26,606 nt of DNA from an uncultured virus (IMG/VR IMGVR_UViG_2061766007_000205) (Duplodnaviria > Heunggongvirae > Uroviricota > Caudoviricetes). Below, piece by piece: positions 1 through 18,769 of this stretch (position 1 is its first letter; every line of letters begins with the position of its first letter). A program made the translations under genes and the position numbers. The stretch lies in IMG/VR virus record IMGVR_UViG_2061766007_000205; one strand, 5' to 3'. The notes beneath the pieces were generated by a model, which saw only the letters and a program-made list of their open reading frames with translations, was not told the origin of the DNA and ran no database searches.

Positions 1-1
1 C

Positions 2-358
2 ACACCGCAGAGCGTTCTTGAAAAAGCACGAAATAAAAAGACGGAACTTCACAAATGTTTTGAATGGGATGATTCAGTAGCATCTGAAAAGTACCGCCTT
101 ATACAAGCAAGACAGATTATACAACATTTCGTGATAATTCACAACGAAGGTGAAGAAACCGAGCAAAAGATACGCTCATATCAGGTCACAACAGAAGCAA
201 CGAAGTATGAAAAGACCGAACTGTTTTTACAGAAGCCGGATGAATATGCCGCACTTCTGGAACGTGCAAAGGCGGAACTTGAAGCCTTTAAGAACAGATA
301 TAGGACTTTGACAGAACTTGAAAGCATTTTTGCAGAAATCGACTTATTGCTCACATAA
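2..358 (+). CDS. Conserved phage protein, 5'-truncated; partner of the RAMP-like gene (copy 1)
   Basis: The frame is open from base 2: TPQSVLEKARNKKTELHKCFEWDDSVASEKYRLIQARQIIQHFVII...ELEAFKNRYRTLTELESIFAEID. It aligns end-to-end with 1926..2369. The ORF track start at 131 is internal. Confidence 0.85.
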   Translation, partial: TPQSVLEKARNKKTELHKCFEWDDSVASEKYRLIQARQIIQHFVIIHNEGEETEQKIRSYQVTTEATKYEKTELFLQKPDEYAALLERAKAELEAFKNRYRTLTELESIFAEIDLLLT

Positions 359-364
359 GAATAA

Positions 365-580
365 GCCTTGATGGGTGGATTGTTGGCTATTTGCCAAAGT
401 AAAGGAAACTTCAATAAACAAAACCAAAGATAATCATAGCAAAGGAAACAATAGGACATTAAAAAACACTTTACATCAGATAGTCAGCAATGCACCTATC
501 AAGGCGAGCAGATTAAACATTAGAGAATAAGAACAAAATGCAGAACACTTTAGCAAACAATCAGCAAAGGAGAACAAAAA
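365..580 (+). ncRNA. Putative guide-like structured RNA, unit A: 29-bp stem enclosing a pentamer-periodic tract, followed by a second tract
   Basis: 365-393 pairs with 477-505 (G.U wobbles, one G.G mismatch). 396-480 reads as 17 pentamers, all with A at position 3. 510-559 adds 10 more such pentamers. Intergenic, directly upstream of the RAMP-like gene. Confidence 0.75.
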
Positions 581-581
581 C

Positions 582-1265
582 ATGGCAAAAAAGACAGAAA
601 CAATCGTATTGGAGCAGATAAGAAAAGGTAGTTTGATCGTAACAATCGAAGGTATGACAGACCTTCTGTTAAAGGCAATGCCCCGGTCAACAGAGTTAGA
701 GCAGATATTTAAGCAGTCACATCCGAAGGGAACAAAGATTCCTGCAAAGTTCACACAGCCGTATTGCTTGTGGGAAAAACTGATAACTTCTATTCATTGG
801 CAGAATCCTATCACGTTACATGACGATGATTGGTCGCTTTATACCGAAGATGAATGGAAGGACTACATGAAGAACAACAAGCCTTGCATCTTGGGTAAAG
901 CATTTAAGGATTCATTTAAGGAAACATTTGTTTCGTGCGGATTCAAGGAAACAACGGGCAAGGCAGGAACAGACTTTAACAGGACGGTATCAATATCCGC
1001 ATTGAACCCTGTAACATTTGTTGAAGCATCTTATGAACAGACGTTGCCGGAAACAAGCGGTTTGAATAGAACAAAAGTGTTGACGGAAACTAACAGATTC
1101 AGCGGTTGGAAGTGTGATTTTAAGATCAGTTATCTTGAATCCGCTTTCCCGAAAGAAACACTTATGGAAATCATTTCTTATGCCGGAGAGTTTATCGGTA
1201 TCGGCGCAAGACGTGGCGAAGGTTATGGAAGATATTGCATAACCAACATGAAAACAGCGGAATAA
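582..1265 (+). CDS. Stand-alone RAMP-superfamily (Cas7/Csm3-like) protein, copy 1
   Basis: N-terminal strand LIVTIEGMTDLLL; PCILGKAFKDSF resembling the RAMP P.IpGsslKG motif; C-terminal glycine-rich loop GIGARRGEGYGRY. RBS AAGGAG upstream. Confidence 0.75.
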   Translation: MAKKTETIVLEQIRKGSLIVTIEGMTDLLLKAMPRSTELEQIFKQSHPKGTKIPAKFTQPYCLWEKLITSIHWQNPITLHDDDWSLYTEDEWKDYMKNNKPCILGKAFKDSFKETFVSCGFKETTGKAGTDFNRTVSISALNPVTFVEASYEQTLPETSGLNRTKVLTETNRFSGWKCDFKISYLESAFPKETLMEIISYAGEFIGIGARRGEGYGRYCITNMKTAE

Positions 1266-1273
1266 ATAGTTGT

Positions 1274-1298
1274 AGCTGACCTAACGGCATGACGGGGT
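1274..1298 (+). promoter_or_regulatory. Conserved pseudoknot-like leader element upstream of recT (copy 1)
   Basis: agctgacctaacggcatgacggggt; near-identical copy at 3400-3423. GCUG/CGGC stem whose loop ACCU can pair with the downstream GGGU. Confidence 0.5.
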
Positions 1299-1315
1299 AG
1301 GGAAGGATATATCAC

Positions 1316-1575
1316 ATGGCAAATGAATTAACGGTTAAGGAAAAAGGTATTGCGGAGTACCTTGCAAGTCCGGCGGTCAAAGAGAATATCATCAATGTTT
1401 TAGGCGAGAAACACGCGGATGCTTTCATATCTGATTTAGTGGCTTGCGTTCAAAACAATACGGAATTAGCGAAATGCTCAAACAAGTCTATTTTTTCAGC
1501 GGCATTGTTAAGTAGGTCGATCAACTTACCACTTACACCGCAGTTATCTTATTGCTATCTCGTTCCATTTAACAA
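1316..1575 (+). CDS. recT: RecT-family ssDNA annealing protein, N-terminal part, cut by an assembly gap
   Basis: FISDLVACVQNNTELAKCSNKSIFSAALLSRSINLPLTPQLSYCYLVPF is a typical RecT N-terminus. Same syntenic slot as 3512..4279. Ends at the 10-N gap 1576-1585. Confidence 0.75.
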
Positions 1576-1737
1576 NNNNNNNNNNAAGGTACATCACCGA
1601 GAAGAAAGAACGTGATGCAAAGGTAGCGGAAATCCGCAAGAACAGGAGACTATCTCTCGAACTGTACCATCACAAGATAGAAAAGATGCGGCAGGAGGAT
1701 AAAAAGCACAAATACAAATGAAAGGAGGAAAGCACAC

Positions 1738-1926
1738 ATGATTTACAGAGTAATTCTGAAAGTTGGGTATCACAACGCACATTTCGATTTTGAAACGGTG
1801 GAAGATGCGGCAACATTCGCAAGGGTAGCATTGTCTCATATGGTTGATTGTGACGACACGAAAGCGAAAGCGTCTATCACGATGCTGATAATCGACCCTA
1901 CGAAGGAAAGTGAGGAGGATGACTGA
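1738..1926 (+). CDS. Small hypothetical phage protein
   Basis: 62-aa ORF with strong RBS AAAGGAGG; the stop overlaps the next start. Confidence 0.75.
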   Translation: MIYRVILKVGYHNAHFDFETVEDAATFARVALSHMVDCDDTKAKASITMLIIDPTKESEEDD

Positions 1927-2369
1927 TGGAAAGAATCAGATGGTCGGTTGAGGGACTTCACAAAGCTGATGCTCAAAAATGCTACAACGAATGTCAGACC
2001 CTTGAGGAAGTCACACCTGCAAACGTCCTTGAGAAAGCACGAAACAAGCGCACAGAACTTCATAAATGTTTCGAGTGGGATGACAGCATAGCGGGCGAGA
2101 AATACAGACTTATTCAGGCGAGAGACGTAATCCGGCATTTCGTGATATACACCCCTGATGAGGAAAACTTGCCGAAGATCCGTTCGTATCAGATTTCAAC
2201 AGAATGTACCAGATATGAACCTACTCGGATGTTTCTTCAGAACCCGGACGAGTACACGGAATTGCTTAAAAGGGCAAAGAATGAACTTGAAGCCTTTAAG
2301 CAGCGGTATAAGACCTTGACGGAACTTGAAACGATTTTTGAGGAGATCGACAGATTTCTCGAAGGATAG
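1926..2369 (+). CDS. Conserved phage protein (LHKCFEWDD motif); partner of the RAMP-like gene (copy 2)
   Basis: 147-aa ORF with GAGGAGG RBS; homologous to 2..358 and in the same position relative to the RNA array and RAMP gene. Confidence 0.85.
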   Translation: MERIRWSVEGLHKADAQKCYNECQTLEEVTPANVLEKARNKRTELHKCFEWDDSIAGEKYRLIQARDVIRHFVIYTPDEENLPKIRSYQISTECTRYEPTRMFLQNPDEYTELLKRAKNELEAFKQRYKTLTELETIFEEIDRFLEG

Positions 2370-2378
2370 AAATACCTA

Positions 2379-2504
2379 TAGCAAGCGTAGTGTTGGCTTT
2401 ATGCCAAAAGAAAAGTCTCAAAAAGCGAACCAAAGGAGAGATAAAAAAACCGAAAGAAACCACACTACACAAAACTAAACATAAAGTCAGCACTACGCTT
2501 GCTA
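2379..2504 (+). ncRNA. Putative guide-like RNA, unit B: 25-bp stem enclosing a pentamer tract
   Basis: 2379-2403 tagcaagcgtagtgttggctttatg pairs with 2480-2504 cataaagtcagcactacgcttgcta (two G.U). 2407-2481 is 15 pentamers, 14 with A at position 3. Confidence 0.75.
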
Positions 2505-2516
2505 AAAAAATACCAA

Positions 2517-2571
2517 AAACCAAAGCATACTTAACGAAACCAGATTAAAGGAAACGAAAGCAAATTACAGA
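2517..2571 (+). repeat. Pentamer-periodic linker tract between units B and C
   Basis: aaacc aaagc atact taacg aaacc agatt aaagg aaacg aaagc aaatt acaga: 11/11 with A at position 3. Confidence 0.75.
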
Positions 2572-2735
2572 TAGGACTTTGGCTTTATGCCAAAACTAAA
2601 GCAGACATTGAGAAGGAAAAGAACACTACACTAAAACTAACAAAAGCATGAAGTCAAACTCCTGTCTGTAATGAGACAGTACCAAAAGAAAGTCACGAAA
2701 GGAAACACACACCAAAACAAACTAAAAAACAGAAA
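2564..2735 (+). ncRNA. Putative guide-like RNA, unit C: 27-bp stem enclosing a pentamer tract, plus a trailing tract
   Basis: 2564-2590 pairs with 2646-2672 (three G.U, one C.C). 2593-2647 is 11 pentamers, 9 with A at position 3. Further AAA-NN units follow at 2674-2733 with register slips. Confidence 0.7.
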
Positions 2736-2747
2736 GGGGAAACAGCA

Positions 2748-3386
2748 ATGAAGAAAGAAGTTGAAGTTATCGAGTTTAAGCCTATTGTACCGAAAACGGT
2801 AGAAATCACGATTGAGGGTGATACGGATCTTGTGTTGAACAAGATGAATGATGTTACCACAAGACAGTTGACGGATGCCAGAAAGGACAAGGCAAAGGAT
2901 TTATCAAAGCCTAACGAATGGGAGGAGATCATCACGGCAGTTCATTGGATAAACGGCAAGCCGGAAGAGTTCTCGGAAAAGACCCTCAAGGAATGTCTGA
3001 ACCCGAAGAAAAATGCTCCTTGCATAACAGCTTTCGGACTTAAAAAGAGTTTCGGAGAGGCGCTTACTCGAAACAAAATCAGCACATACTCCACGGAGTT
3101 TAGGGCAACTGTAAATGTTATCGGGGAAAGAGCAAATCTCATTCCGATAAGGTTTTCTGAATATCATTTGGACGAAATGCTCATGTCACCGAAGAAGGGT
3201 GCGCCTGTCCTTGTAAAACTGAATAGGTTCAGCGGATGGAGTGCAAAATTCAGAATCAGTTTCCTTGAGAATGTGTACTCACTTGAGCAGATCGTGAACA
3301 TCATAAACTTATCTGGTTTCGGTATTGGTATCGGTTCAAGCAGAAACAGTGACTTTGGCAGGTATCATGTCACGAACATACAGTAA
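2748..3386 (+). CDS. Stand-alone RAMP-superfamily (Cas7/Csm3-like) protein, copy 2
   Basis: VEITIEGDTDLVLN, PCITAFGLKKSF, NRFSGW and the glycine-rich loop GFGIGIGSSRNSDFGRY. Clearly homologous to 582..1265. Confidence 0.75.
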   Translation: MKKEVEVIEFKPIVPKTVEITIEGDTDLVLNKMNDVTTRQLTDARKDKAKDLSKPNEWEEIITAVHWINGKPEEFSEKTLKECLNPKKNAPCITAFGLKKSFGEALTRNKISTYSTEFRATVNVIGERANLIPIRFSEYHLDEMLMSPKKGAPVLVKLNRFSGWSAKFRISFLENVYSLEQIVNIINLSGFGIGIGSSRNSDFGRYHVTNIQ

Positions 3387-3399
3387 ACCTCCATATATA

Positions 3400-3423
3400 A
3401 GCTGACCTATCGGCTATACGGGG
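3400..3423 (+). promoter_or_regulatory. Conserved pseudoknot-like leader element upstream of recT (copy 2)
   Basis: agctgacctatcggctatacgggg, matching 1274-1297; followed by an unstructured A-rich leader up to the recT RBS. Confidence 0.5.
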
Positions 3424-3511
3424 AAGTAAAAAACATTTTACATAAACAAAGACAATAAGAAAAAGGGAAAGAAAAATTAAAAAAATCAAACTATTTAAGA
3501 AGGGAGACAAT

Positions 3512-15397: not shown

Positions 15398-17362
15398 GGT
15401 ATGGATTGCCTTATAAAAGGCTCAAAGAACAGCATAGCGGAATGGATTATTGATAATCTCCCATCTGCTGATACATTTGTGGATTTATTCTTTGGCGGCG
15501 GTGCGGTGACACACAGAGCAATGCTGACCGGGAAATATAAGCACTTTATAATCAATGATATTGATGATCGTCTACCGAGACTGTTTCTCGATTGCGTACA
15601 CGGCAAGCATACAGCCGAAAAACACCCTGAATGGATAACAAGGGAAGAATTTAACAAGCGCAAGCGTGAGGATGCTTACATAGGCTTGATATGGAGTTTT
15701 GGGAATAATGGGAAAGACTATCTGTACGGCGCGGATATAGAGGACATGAAACACGCATATCATAAAGCCGTGTATTTTGACGATATAGACGCTTTGCGAC
15801 CCTTCGGGTATAAATTAACCTTGAGCAATAAAAAGGGCATATATGACCGATATCTGGACTATCAGAGGCAGATAAAAAAGCAGACCCCGGACATCCGCAA
15901 CGAAATAATTGAGCGCCAAACCGAGATCGAGAGACTACAATCCTTACAGTCGCTACAATCCTTACAGTCGCTACAATCCTTCGGGCGGGATTATCGCGAA
16001 GTGGAGATCCCCGCGGGGGCAATGATATACTGTTTTGATAAAGAAACAGAGATTTTAACCAAACGTGGATGGATAAATGTTGGTGATGTTAGACTTAATG
16101 ATTATTGTTTATCAAGGCAACCCAACACAAAAGTCCTTGCATGGAAAAAGGTTGTAAATCTAATCAGTTACAAGTATTCAGGCTATATGTATGAATATAA
16201 AGGGAAAAATGTAGATTTATGCGTAACGCCTAATCATAGGATGTTTATAGCCGCTACGCACACAAGAAAAAGAATATACATTGAGGATTTTGAAACAGCC
16301 GAGAACATTTTTAGTTGTGCGTCAAAAAAACAATTTATATCAGCAGGAGGAAAATGGGAAAACAAAGCAGATGATGATTTTATAAATATATGTGGCGATA
16401 CATTTCTCAAATATGATTTTGCATACCTATTAGGTATTTTTCTGACCGATGGGAGCGTAAATAACCAAGGCGCAATAACTATTTCGCAAACAAAAAAAGA
16501 TATTAAAACCAAAATAATTGATGTGTTAAACAAGCTGAATATCAAATATTCAGAATACACTGCCAAAGGACGCAACCCGGAATTAAGAACCTTTTATATA
16601 ACAAGAAAATACCTTCCGTTCTTTGAACAATTTTATAGAAAAAGCGATAGGAAAATACCACAAAATATCAAAGATTGGGATAAAAAACATCTTGAAAGGT
16701 TATTAGAGGGGATAATAGACGGTGATAGCGACAAAGAACGCCGTAGAATTTTTTGCGGATCAAAGTCATTAGTGGATGACATTCAAGAAATATGCTACAA
16801 ATTAGGTTTAAGTTCATGTATTCGAGAAATGCAATCAAAAAAGACATATTTGAAAGGCGAGGATAGATGGATTGAACCTAAAAGCTCCTATTATGTTCTG
16901 TCTATCAATCATAGGGAACATTTGTGCATAAGAAAAGACAATATACACAAAATACCATATGATGATGTTGTAAATTGCGTAACTTTAGAAGGTTGGCATA
17001 CTGTATTAGTACGGCGAAATGGGAAACCTATATGGTGCGGTCAATGCGATATACCGTACTTCCAAACAGACTGCGGTAAGTATGACGGGTTTAACCACGA
17101 GAGATTTTATGAGTGGGCTTGGGAACAGGACAACATATTCATATCCGAGTACACAATGCCGGATGATTTTATAGAGGTGGCGAAAATTGAAAAGACCATA
17201 CTTTCTGCGGCAAACGGAAACAGTCAGAAAGCCGAGGAAAAGATATATACTAATAGGCGCACTTATGATCGTTTGGATGAGGACTTCAAAGAGTGTATCA
17301 AATTCAATAGAGCAGAACAGATGACGATGTTTGACTTCGGGTACTGCCCGTATCAGGAATAA
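15394..17362 (+). CDS. D12-class (Dam-like) DNA adenine methyltransferase with an intein; apparent +1 frameshift near the start
   Basis: MRYGLPYK (from 15394) / GSKNSIA, FVDLFFGGGAV motif I, IINDID, and catalytic IY|CDIPY reconstituted after intein removal, then FISEY. Confidence 0.85.
15935..15979 (+). repeat. In-frame tandem repeat encoding (LQS)5
   Basis: ctacaatccttacagtcg x2.5. Confidence 0.85.
16031..17044 (+). mobile_element. Intein with LAGLIDADG homing endonuclease (338 aa)
   Basis: Starts CFDKETEILTKRGW; block B VTPNHRM; YLLGIFLTDGS and LLEGIIDGDS; ends VRRNGKPIWCGQ before the +1 Cys. More AT-rich than its flanks. Confidence 0.92.
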
Positions 17363-17794: not shown

Positions 17795-18769
17795 TCAGGC
17801 GATCCGCGTTATCTCTTCAAGGGTTATAAAGGGCGCTTGTATTCTTTCGAGATGCTGCGCACCGTTCCGAAGGTATAGCCCGTCGCCGTTCCCGGTCAGA
17901 TGTTCAGCCCCCGAACGGTCAAGGATGATCCGCGAGTCCGTGTTTGATAATGTCCGAAAAGCCACGCGAGTCGGAATGTTGCCTTTTAATGTCCCATTAA
18001 TAACAGTGGAGTCGGGACGTTGAGTCGCTAAAATGACATGACAACCCGCCGCGCGTCCCTTTTGCACTATTCTCAATAATTGAGGGACTAACACCCGCCG
18101 CGACTCCTNNNNNNNNNNNNNNNNNNNNNNNNNNNNNNNNNNNNNNNNNNNNNNNNNNNNNNNNNNNNNNNNNNNGTAGTTATTGACTCCGGCTCTTTCC
18201 ATCTCTGCATATCTGGACTCCATATTATCAATGATAAAGGATGCAAAGCGGGCGGCGCTGTTAGTCCCGAAAACCTCAGAACACACATTGCAATGACTCC
18301 TATATATTGAGAACTCGACTCGCTTGCAATCCACCAAAAACAGATTGCAATTATCATTTAATAATAAAGATAATATGAGGTCATGCAAAAACACACTTTT
18401 GCCGCTTCCTGTCGTTCCTGCTATGAGGACATGACGCGCCGACTCGATGTCATCCAGAATTATCTCCCCATTGTTAAAACCTACAATAAAAGGAATATCG
18501 GGATTTTTATAATCAATATATCCGTTGTAGTCCATATAATTATATACTGTTTTCCCGTCTTTGATGCGGACATATAACCCCGTTGAATCGGTTATAATTT
18601 CAAGATTGCATCCCGTGACCGCTTCGAGATCGGGGAGTCGGTTTTTTAATCTTTGGATTGTAGCGGCTGACCCGNNNNNNNNNNNNNNNNNNNNNNNNNN
18701 NNNNNNNNTGATTATATCCGTTACAATATACGGTATTTTGTAAAGCTGTAAAGCCTCATCAAGTTTCAA
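17795..18769 (-). CDS. FtsK/SpoIIIE-family ATPase domain protein
   Basis: HVLIAGTTGSGKS Walker A, LVDCKRVEF, QKGRAAGCHVILATQRP, GAEHLTGNGDGL. Walker B falls in an N-gap. Confidence 0.9.
   Translation of the reverse strand: MKLDEALQLYKIPYIVTDIIXXXXXXXXXXXXGSAATIQRLKNRLPDLEAVTGCNLEIITDSTGLYVRIKDGKTVYNYMDYNGYIDYKNPDIPFIVGFNNGEIILDDIESARHVLIAGTTGSGKSVFLHDLILSLLLNDNCNLFLVDCKRVEFSIYRSHCNVCSEVFGTNSAARFASFIIDNMESRYAEMERAGVNNYXXXXXXXXXXXXXXXXXXXXXXXESRRVLVPQLLRIVQKGRAAGCHVILATQRPDSTVINGTLKGNIPTRVAFRTLSNTDSRIILDRSGAEHLTGNGDGLYLRNGAQHLERIQAPFITLEEITRIA

Follow-up and report, generated by a model that had tools for sequence, protein, structure and literature searches.

A putative adenine-anchored variant of the VIPR guide RNA module in an uncultured Caudoviricetes genome

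The 26,606-nucleotide (nt) record IMGVR_UViG_2061766007_000205, analyzed here over its whole length (the window), comes from an uncultured virus of the Caudoviricetes and carries an A-rich tract in which three fixed bases and two variable bases recur every five positions. This tract is very probably the guide region of a VIPR vrRNA with targets in the genes of rival phages, and it belongs to a module made of a vap-like accessory gene, one or two hairpins, and a vipr gene. The kind of system is a known one; the A-H-A anchor triplet, the enclosure of the guides in hairpins, and a matching change in the protein form a variant that is undescribed in the texts of the VIPR preprints.

VIPR is a CRISPR-like system for DNA silencing that was made known in 2026. 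As set out in the text of the discovery preprint, it combines a phage-borne, stand-alone RAMP protein (Vipr) with an accessory gene (vap) and vrRNAs, which consist of 9 to 16 YNNGG pentamers whose NN dinucleotides form base pairs with double-stranded DNA according to a "1 nt skip rule" (bioRxiv 10.64898/2026.04.26.720920). The skipped base usually falls at the codon wobble position, the targets lie in competing phages and satellites, and NNNGG, YNNNG, and NNNNG are listed in that text as alternative anchors (10.64898/2026.04.26.720920).

A pentameric tract enclosed in hairpins

The window corresponds to the early part of a phage or prophage genome, which serves recombination and replication, and contains two homologous but different copies of the module, split by a run of 10 N at 1577-1586. 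Both copies share the order PHROG-15946 gene, A-rich intergenic region (359-581 in locus 1; 2370-2747 in locus 2), PHROG-4652 gene, and RecT.

An initial annotation of the window had reported a strict five-base period in locus 1, and the letters and counts given for 396-480 were reproduced on recounting: A makes up 48 of 85 bases, position 3 is A in 17/17 pentamers, and position 4 is G or C in 13/17, while position 1 is A in 13/17. The hypergeometric probability of the 17/17 count is 1.3e-5 in one phase and 6.6e-5 over five phases. In the second tract (510-559, plus strand), A occupies position 3 in 10/10 units; it lies outside the hairpin, and its phase is shifted by 4 nt relative to the first tract. 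The length of the first tract needs a correction, in that 16 A-H-A plus NN pentamers (396-475, plus strand) are clean loop units and the 17th (476-480) already lies in the 3′ stem arm (477-505).

Periodicity was assessed as the period-5 power of A against dinucleotide-preserving shuffles (n = 2,000 per region). The observed power was matched by 0/2000 shuffles for 396-480 and also for 396-559, in agreement with the periodicity first proposed. Across the complete intergenic region 359-581, 8/2000 shuffles matched it, and in locus 2, whose region 2370-2747 is independent, the count was 6/2000. When any period from 2.0 to 12.9 was allowed, the corresponding counts rose to 28/2000 (396-480), 99/2000 (396-559), 911/2000 (359-581), and 345/2000 (2370-2747). 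Because this any-period test is much weaker, the periodicity is only moderately secure from the window alone; it is the related loci described below that confirm it.

The locus-1 tract sits in the loop of a predicted hairpin, W1 (365-505, plus strand), just upstream of a 227-amino-acid (aa) vipr gene, with a 5′ arm at 365-393, a loop at 394-476, and a 3′ arm at 477-505 (inverted repeat I1, 29 nt, 83% complementary). The predicted RNA fold of 359-581 has a z score of -7.3, and 0/200 shuffles fold as well. Locus 2 contains two such hairpins on the plus strand, and its intergenic region reaches a z score of -8.1 with no shuffle as stable. W2a (2379-2504) has arms at 2379-2403 and 2480-2504 and a loop at 2404-2479 with 14 pentamers at 2407-2476 (I2, 25 nt, 92% complementary); W2b (2564-2672) has arms at 2564-2590 and 2646-2672 and a loop at 2591-2645 with 10 pentamers at 2593-2642 (I3, 27 nt, 85% complementary). 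The linker between them (2505-2563, plus strand) is itself A-x-A periodic, with A at positions 1 and 3 in 20/22 cells, and is a candidate extra guide. Since the stems hold G-U pairs, the plus strand is the strand predicted to fold, and the structure is best read as an RNA feature. An inner stem (TTGGCTTTATG / CATAAAGTCAGC) is common to the three window units and recurs as the same inner handle in the related loci L001 and L002, while the outer stems differ yet still pair. The 5′ inner arm is also able to form a small local hairpin, TTGGC-N5-GCCAA, abutting the first pentamer.

The A-H-A register recurs in related loci

The protein encoded downstream of the hairpins has 1,904 homologues in public data, none of them functionally named, including 54 loci in viral contigs. 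Upstream of vipr homologues, 44 hairpin units were found in 17 regions, that is, 15 distinct viral loci (protein at least 50% identical) and the two window regions. Each region holds 1 to 4 units with arms of 23 to 38 nt and loops of 52 to 110 nt, and the number of pentamers per loop ranges from 10 to 21, with 16, 14, and 10 in the three window loops. In the pooled composition of the 44 loops, A has a frequency of 0.73 at position 1 and 0.85 at position 3, positions 4 and 5 accept any base, and position 2 is C (0.43), A (0.28), T (0.21), or G (0.08), so that there is no conserved G. An A-x-A-x-x unit should produce a harmonic at period 2.5; there the mean normalized A power over the 44 loops is 8.7, compared with 1.74 at period 5 and a null value of 1. 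In 37/44 loops the observed power was matched by at most 5/500 shuffles.

The stem sequences are unrelated between units. Over 836 cells, of which 114 are G-U, own arms pair at 95.2%, a figure that is partly circular given that the stems were found by complementarity, and swapped arms pair at 44%; the swap control and the diversity of pairs are the informative parts of this test. The arrays come in two styles, with hairpins either abutting (0 to 12 nt apart) or split by A-x-A periodic linkers of 59 to 97 nt. In some arrays these linkers are as A-x-A periodic as the loops, with normalized power up to 16.9; examples are the window linker at 2505-2563 and, in locus L031, positions 986-1053 and 1178-1254 of its 1,399-nt upstream stretch. 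Guides may alternate between loops and linkers.

The adjacent proteins are predicted Vipr-type RAMPs

The locus-1 vipr gene (582-1265, plus strand; phrog_4652) encodes a 227-aa protein with the G-loop GIGARRGEGYGRY, and the locus-2 gene (2748-3386, plus strand) encodes a 212-aa protein with the G-loop GIGSSRNSDFGRY; the two proteins are 31% identical (E 2e-30). A Pfam search gave nothing for the window Vipr-locus proteins, and a single-sequence search against solved structures, run without a profile, gave no match. The profile A1, an alignment of 73 diverse Vipr homologues that includes the locus-1 protein, matched PDB 36pp ("SUSP1 Vipr protein") at E 5.9e-14 over its C-terminal 76 residues, including the glycine-rich loop, whose glycines are invariant in the alignment. 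Pfam RAMPs is matched by 8/73 family members. An AF2 model of the locus-2 Vipr (pLDDT 96.5) found its best Foldseek matches, in a library that predates the Vipr entries, among Cas7-type Cmr/Csm subunits of type III and VII CRISPR complexes (E 2e-6). Homology and modeling together indicate that both window genes encode stand-alone Vipr-type RAMP proteins with a predicted RRM core, glycine-rich loop, and thumb.

The vap-like gene of locus 2 (1926-2369, plus strand; phrog_15946) encodes a 147-aa protein and is assigned by its linkage to vipr; its homologue in locus 1 (2-358, plus strand) has lost its 5′ end at the window edge and matches phrog_15946 at E 1.6e-17. For the locus-2 protein (AF2 pLDDT 87.3), searches of Pfam and of solved structures came up empty, as did Foldseek at E ≤0.001, and its VIA-align matches are limited to a generic C-terminal helical hairpin (Z ≤5.6). 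A vap-like homologue adjoins vipr in 32/33 loci, namely 22/23 with the A-type RNA of the window and 10/10 with a G-type RNA. Vipr relatives occur in metagenome-assembled genomes (MAGs) labeled Faecalimonas, Lachnospiraceae, Oscillospiraceae, and other Clostridia.

The G-type relatives (L037-L053 and L311-L313), whose Vipr proteins are 24 to 29% identical, come from MAGs labeled Oscillospiraceae, Ruminococcaceae, and Clostridia. They carry canonical YNNGG tracts, scoring 17-18/18, between vipr and the same PHROG-15946 gene. Unlike the A-type guides, these tracts lie downstream of vipr and run continuously for about 300 nt without strong closing stems (fold z -1.8 and -1.9). In L311 (3637-3986) and L037 (2544-2838), nearly the whole 300- to 350-nt vipr-vap space is one continuous GG-periodic tract. 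A "staggered, overlapping vrRNA" format is mentioned in the text of the discovery preprint (10.64898/2026.04.26.720920), and the continuous G-type tract may be that format.

The protein alignment splits cleanly with RNA type. The SUSP1 structure, as reported in the text of the structural preprint, has one protomer per repeat, with G1 read by H17 and D177, G2 read by R138 and W178, and Y3 held in a pocket with R179 (10.64898/2026.04.26.720927). In the G-type proteins the G-loop is G-E-W-R in 10/10, aligned to SUSP1 G176-D177-W178-R179, numbers counted from the residue range of the profile alignment. In all 23 A-type proteins it reads S-G-R, S-S-R, or A-R-R and is accompanied by a 3-residue deletion. 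Strand beta-1 carries a His in the G-type proteins and an Asn in the A-type proteins; this His is presumably the equivalent of SUSP1 H17, the N-terminal part of SUSP1 lying outside the alignment.

The guides decode to motifs of phage replication proteins

According to the initial annotation, the variable dinucleotides encode a target that is read either contiguously or with one base skipped per dinucleotide, which would tolerate codon wobble; a two-base gap was named as a further variant. For decoding, positions 4 and 5 of each pentamer were taken as NN, exact 8-unit seeds in the NNx form were searched against viral contigs, and the full guide was then scored. Only the one-skip, wobble-tolerant reading was borne out, with in-frame sense matches for all three window guides and with skip and shuffle controls, done for one guide (W2a), remaining at chance.

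With one skipped base, W2a matched at least 116 loci with scores of 23/28 and above, including 57 perfect sites at 28/28. The perfect sites lie in genes for VRR-NUC nucleases, where they encode EVKAPGEKPRPLQL around the E-V-K motif. They represent 23 distinct sequences that differ only at the skipped positions, and their flanks have a median identity of 60%. Shuffling the order returned 7 loci, the contiguous (0-skip) reading 13, and the 2-skip reading 16, none of them above 21/28, so neither the contiguous reading nor the two-base gap held up.

The 32-base string of W1 is GT GG CT AT CA CC GA TC GC GG CA GG TT AA CT CA. Its seed matched 63 viral contigs, 23 of which score at least 23/32; the best matches reach 30/32 and 28/32, followed by ten at 26/32. 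When these 12 best matches were translated, all were in frame and in the sense orientation, the skipped base being the third of its codon; the targets encode VGLIHPESAGHGLNLQ, or close variants of it, as part of a Helicase_C domain. W2b matched 33 loci, at 20/20 in 4 and at 19/20 in 3, and its top sites, which follow the PTGxGKT box in ResIII/DEAD helicases, encode LAHREELLTQ (or VAHRDELLTQ); 20 matches at 18/20 come from near-identical large contigs in which the frame is not open. The target families are therefore Helicase_C, VRR_NUC, and ResIII/DEAD, and 0/37 window open reading frames (ORFs) scanned against Pfam fall in them. A scan for targets and self-targets over the window and the 54 loci found none, the best score being 23/32 against a shuffle maximum of 22.

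Targets were also sought in 401 genomes, which make up the family of a MAG labeled Lachnospiraceae that itself carries an A-type locus. The W2a pattern with up to 3 mismatches occurs in 12/401 genomes, and the reversed-pattern control in 0/401. The second tract, 510-559, gave no such signal as a guide, since its decoded string had 4 hits against 3 for the reversed-pattern control. A VRR-NUC site matching W2a with 2 mismatches (L315) lies at 5802-5842 of contig C89 in G002, a MAG that carries the A-type VIPR prophage L305 on another contig. Because this MAG holds both L305 and L315, attacker-type and target-type elements co-occur in one host lineage. When 20/44 guides were scanned against a small set of target fragments, only that of L001 stood out, at 19/20 against a shuffle maximum of 18.

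Proposed mechanism and alternative explanations

By homology with SUSP1, Vipr copies would line up along the vrRNA, one per pentamer, each holding the A-H-A triplet away from pairing and presenting the two variable bases. The guides would pair with the template DNA strand of the target gene, because they have the sense of the gene and cannot pair with its mRNA. The phage itself lacks the replication module whose catalytic motifs the three window guides would target: for W1 the C-terminal helicase motif, for W2b the ResIII helicase motif that follows the Walker A box, and for W2a the VRR-NUC E-V-K motif. By analogy with the published system, the guides would probably silence the transcription of rival phages or prophages in gut Clostridia. 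Guide maturation may proceed by a double-strand RNase, because each guide is closed by a 23- to 38-bp stem of its own flanks. The vrRNA units are probably cut out of the operon transcript, given that a promoter and terminator scan of 1-3500 found signals at or below chance. Rfam returned 0 families at the gathering score over the whole window.

A fuller picture can be drawn, in which we place slightly less than even confidence. The A-type loci would form a separate, adenine-anchored VIPR lineage of gut Clostridia phages, whose Vipr pocket has been retooled (E/D-W to S-G, a 3-residue deletion, and beta-1 His to Asn) and which would thus be naturally orthogonal to GGY systems. Its guides would be released from long hairpins via a double-strand RNase, and both loops and periodic linkers would serve as guides. 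The guides would be written against amino-acid motifs, so that a single 14-unit guide fits VRR-NUC genes despite a flank identity of only about 60%.

Besides the any-period test and the partial circularity of the stem pairing, several observations weigh against reading the tract as a vrRNA guide region. W1 has no perfect natural target, its best match being 30/32, and a 10-unit seed of W1 found 6 matches in a metagenome collection, which extended to 22-24/32, a chance level. The extension test for W2b draws on only 4 free bases. The best local score for 510-559 is 15/20 against a shuffle maximum of 17, and the linker at 2505-2563 and the other periodic linkers have no target in a small local sequence set. 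In L031, a 56%-identical locus, the guide of unit 1 gave 29 seed hits, all at the chance level of 17-20/26, and the generality of targeting across the clade is thin. The GGY triplet is absent and its SUSP1 reader residues are replaced, so that the A-H-A binding mode of Vipr is conjectural. The vrRNA, its ends, and its binding by Vipr are in silico predictions, as is target matching by the one-skip NN string. Expression is hinted at by short contigs from three metatranscriptomes with 95 to 99% likeness to the window: two 151-nt contigs from X1 (recorded as bovine gut metagenome) cover 2544-2772, X2 covers 2924-3084, and X3 covers 3210-3400; these record presence in an RNA library without ends or strand and could derive from DNA.

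The position of the tracts directly upstream of vipr, in its leader, would also suit Vipr-binding scaffolds or decoys that titrate or regulate Vipr or its translation and carry no target information. Decoy-directed solo vrRNAs encoded by satellites are reported in the text of a further preprint (10.64898/2026.10.15.759431), and the 510-559 tail and the interhairpin linkers are periodic without a detectable target. However, all three loop guides decode to in-frame, conserved phage motifs beyond chance, and the skip and shuffle controls fail, which makes the scaffold explanation highly improbable. Alternatively, the periodicity could have no dedicated function and simply follow from a composition, or a translational leader, that is rich in A; the nonsignificance of the whole intergenic regions under the any-period test (911/2000 and 345/2000) would agree with this. 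Yet A-x-A is phase-locked in 37/44 loops despite unrelated stems, and the variable positions spell real gene motifs; we give this explanation almost no credence.

Another question is whether the substrate of the guides is RNA, or single-stranded intermediates of replication, instead of double-stranded DNA. The targets are replication genes of rival phages, and the VIPR filament is described in the text of the structural preprint as accepting single-stranded DNA or single-stranded RNA within the duplex formed by guide and target (10.64898/2026.04.26.720927). But in the published system silencing is effective on both DNA strands and completion of the filament requires DNA as a third strand (10.64898/2026.04.26.720920; 10.64898/2026.04.26.720927), and all three window guides run in the sense direction of their target ORFs and cannot pair with the mRNA. 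An RNA or single-stranded target is therefore very unlikely, and silencing through double-stranded DNA remains the preferred reading of the guides.

Relation to known systems

The window loci resemble Escherichia phage SUSP1 and a Pseudomonas fulva prophage, the type II exemplars of VIPR, in encoding a small RAMP protein that stands alone and is a homologue of SUSP1 Vipr. They share with published VIPR the placement in a phage or prophage locus with one accessory gene, the 10 to 16 pentamers of three fixed and two variable bases, the 1-nt skip at the codon wobble position, targets in competing phages, and the lack of a self-target. The fixed triplet, in contrast, is A-H-A here and GGY (or NNNGG, YNNNG, NNNNG) in the published systems. 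The conserved 3′ tail that caps the repeats as a pseudoknot in the SUSP1 clade is replaced in the window by a 25- to 29-bp stem of paired 5′ and 3′ flanks, and across the related loci the guide lies within a 23- to 38-bp stem of its own flanks. Further differences from published VIPR are that the space between vap and vipr, upstream of the latter, holds the vrRNAs, that the G-loop residues D177-W178 of SUSP1 give way to S-G, S-S, or A-R with a 3-residue deletion, and that the accessory gene encodes a 147-aa protein without a recognizable fold.

Neither an A-H-A or ACA anchor nor a long closing stem is named in the texts of the VIPR preprints; the figures that list all motifs (Fig. S17 and Fig. 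S10) and the data tables stand apart from those texts and may include the clade, which may likewise already be among the seven published VIPR types. A genomic-language-model survey describes in its text 21 noncanonical period-5 clusters, such as GAC/NN, CAC/NN, WGT/NN, and TGH/NN (10.64898/2026.10.21.760802), which resemble the present loci in that period-5 arrays with a non-GGY triplet stand beside Vipr-like folds. The strings "ACA", "AHA", and "ACANN" have 0 occurrences in that text, and the clade may be among the 21 clusters of its Fig. S10; in that text, neither targets nor the skip rule are tested for such variants.

The backbone of class 1 CRISPR effectors (Cas7: Csm3/Cmr4) has the same RRM, G-loop, and thumb fold and likewise lines a guide RNA as a protein filament, leaving bases unpaired at regular intervals. 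The period, however, is 5 here with 3 of 5 bases withheld, compared with 6 and 1 of 6 in CRISPR RNA, and the guides are hard-wired instead of being acquired spacers, without CRISPR repeats or other cas genes. The window has phage replication and recombination genes and no cas family among the 37 ORFs scanned, and no CRISPR-like repeats were seen in 1-3500, where no dedicated CRISPR finder was used. A class 1 CRISPR-Cas effector was rejected on the period of 5 instead of 6, the lack of an array, and the lack of other cas genes. TRAP is a small beta-sandwich ring that binds (G/U)AG triplets spaced 2 to 3 nt apart in a leader; a TRAP-like ring was set aside in view of the RAMP fold of the adjacent protein, the unit number of 10 to 21, and the target information in the variable bases. 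A RecT filament site was dismissed, RecT being a neighbor in only 3 of the other 33 loci, and an Hfq or CsrA sponge, a type III toxin-antitoxin RNA, a Cas6 site, and a miniature inverted-repeat transposable element were dropped once the protein had been identified as Vipr.

To our knowledge, mechanistic work on VIPR has so far been done entirely on GGY guides from Proteobacteria phages. The loci described here extend the published picture of VIPR and do not overturn it. They suggest that adenine can completely replace guanine as the fixed anchor, with a parallel change in the residues by which the protein reads it, which would offer a natural test of anchor recognition and a candidate orthogonal protein-RNA pair. 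The skip rule appears to survive this switch, a point that is not tested for non-GGY variants in the preprint texts. The hairpin-enclosed format may point to a different guide biogenesis. In ecological terms, gut Clostridia phages with a RecT/DnaD-type replication module would aim at catalytic motifs in the SNF2/ResIII-helicase and VRR-NUC module of others, and the 23 distinct sequences matched perfectly by one guide, because only their wobble bases differ, illustrate how such a code could defeat synonymous escape.

Organization and other features of the window

Because the 10-N run links homologous but clearly different vap-vrRNA-vipr-RecT modules, the window has the look of a scaffold, or of two related phages joined together, and not of one continuous genome. 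The vap genes of the two loci are about 71% identical at the nucleotide level. Between vipr and RecT, both loci carry a conserved 44-nt element (1274-1317 and 3400-3443; 73% identical) with the pattern AGCTGACCTA.CGGC...ACGGGG. Farther downstream, a gene for an FtsK/SpoIIIE-family ATPase lies on the minus strand (17795-18769) inside an otherwise plus-strand block of phage genes. A 653-aa ORF at 15401-17362 joins the start of a D12-class N6-adenine DNA methyltransferase to LAGLIDADG homing-endonuclease domains, which suggests an intein or a homing endonuclease inserted in a methylase gene.

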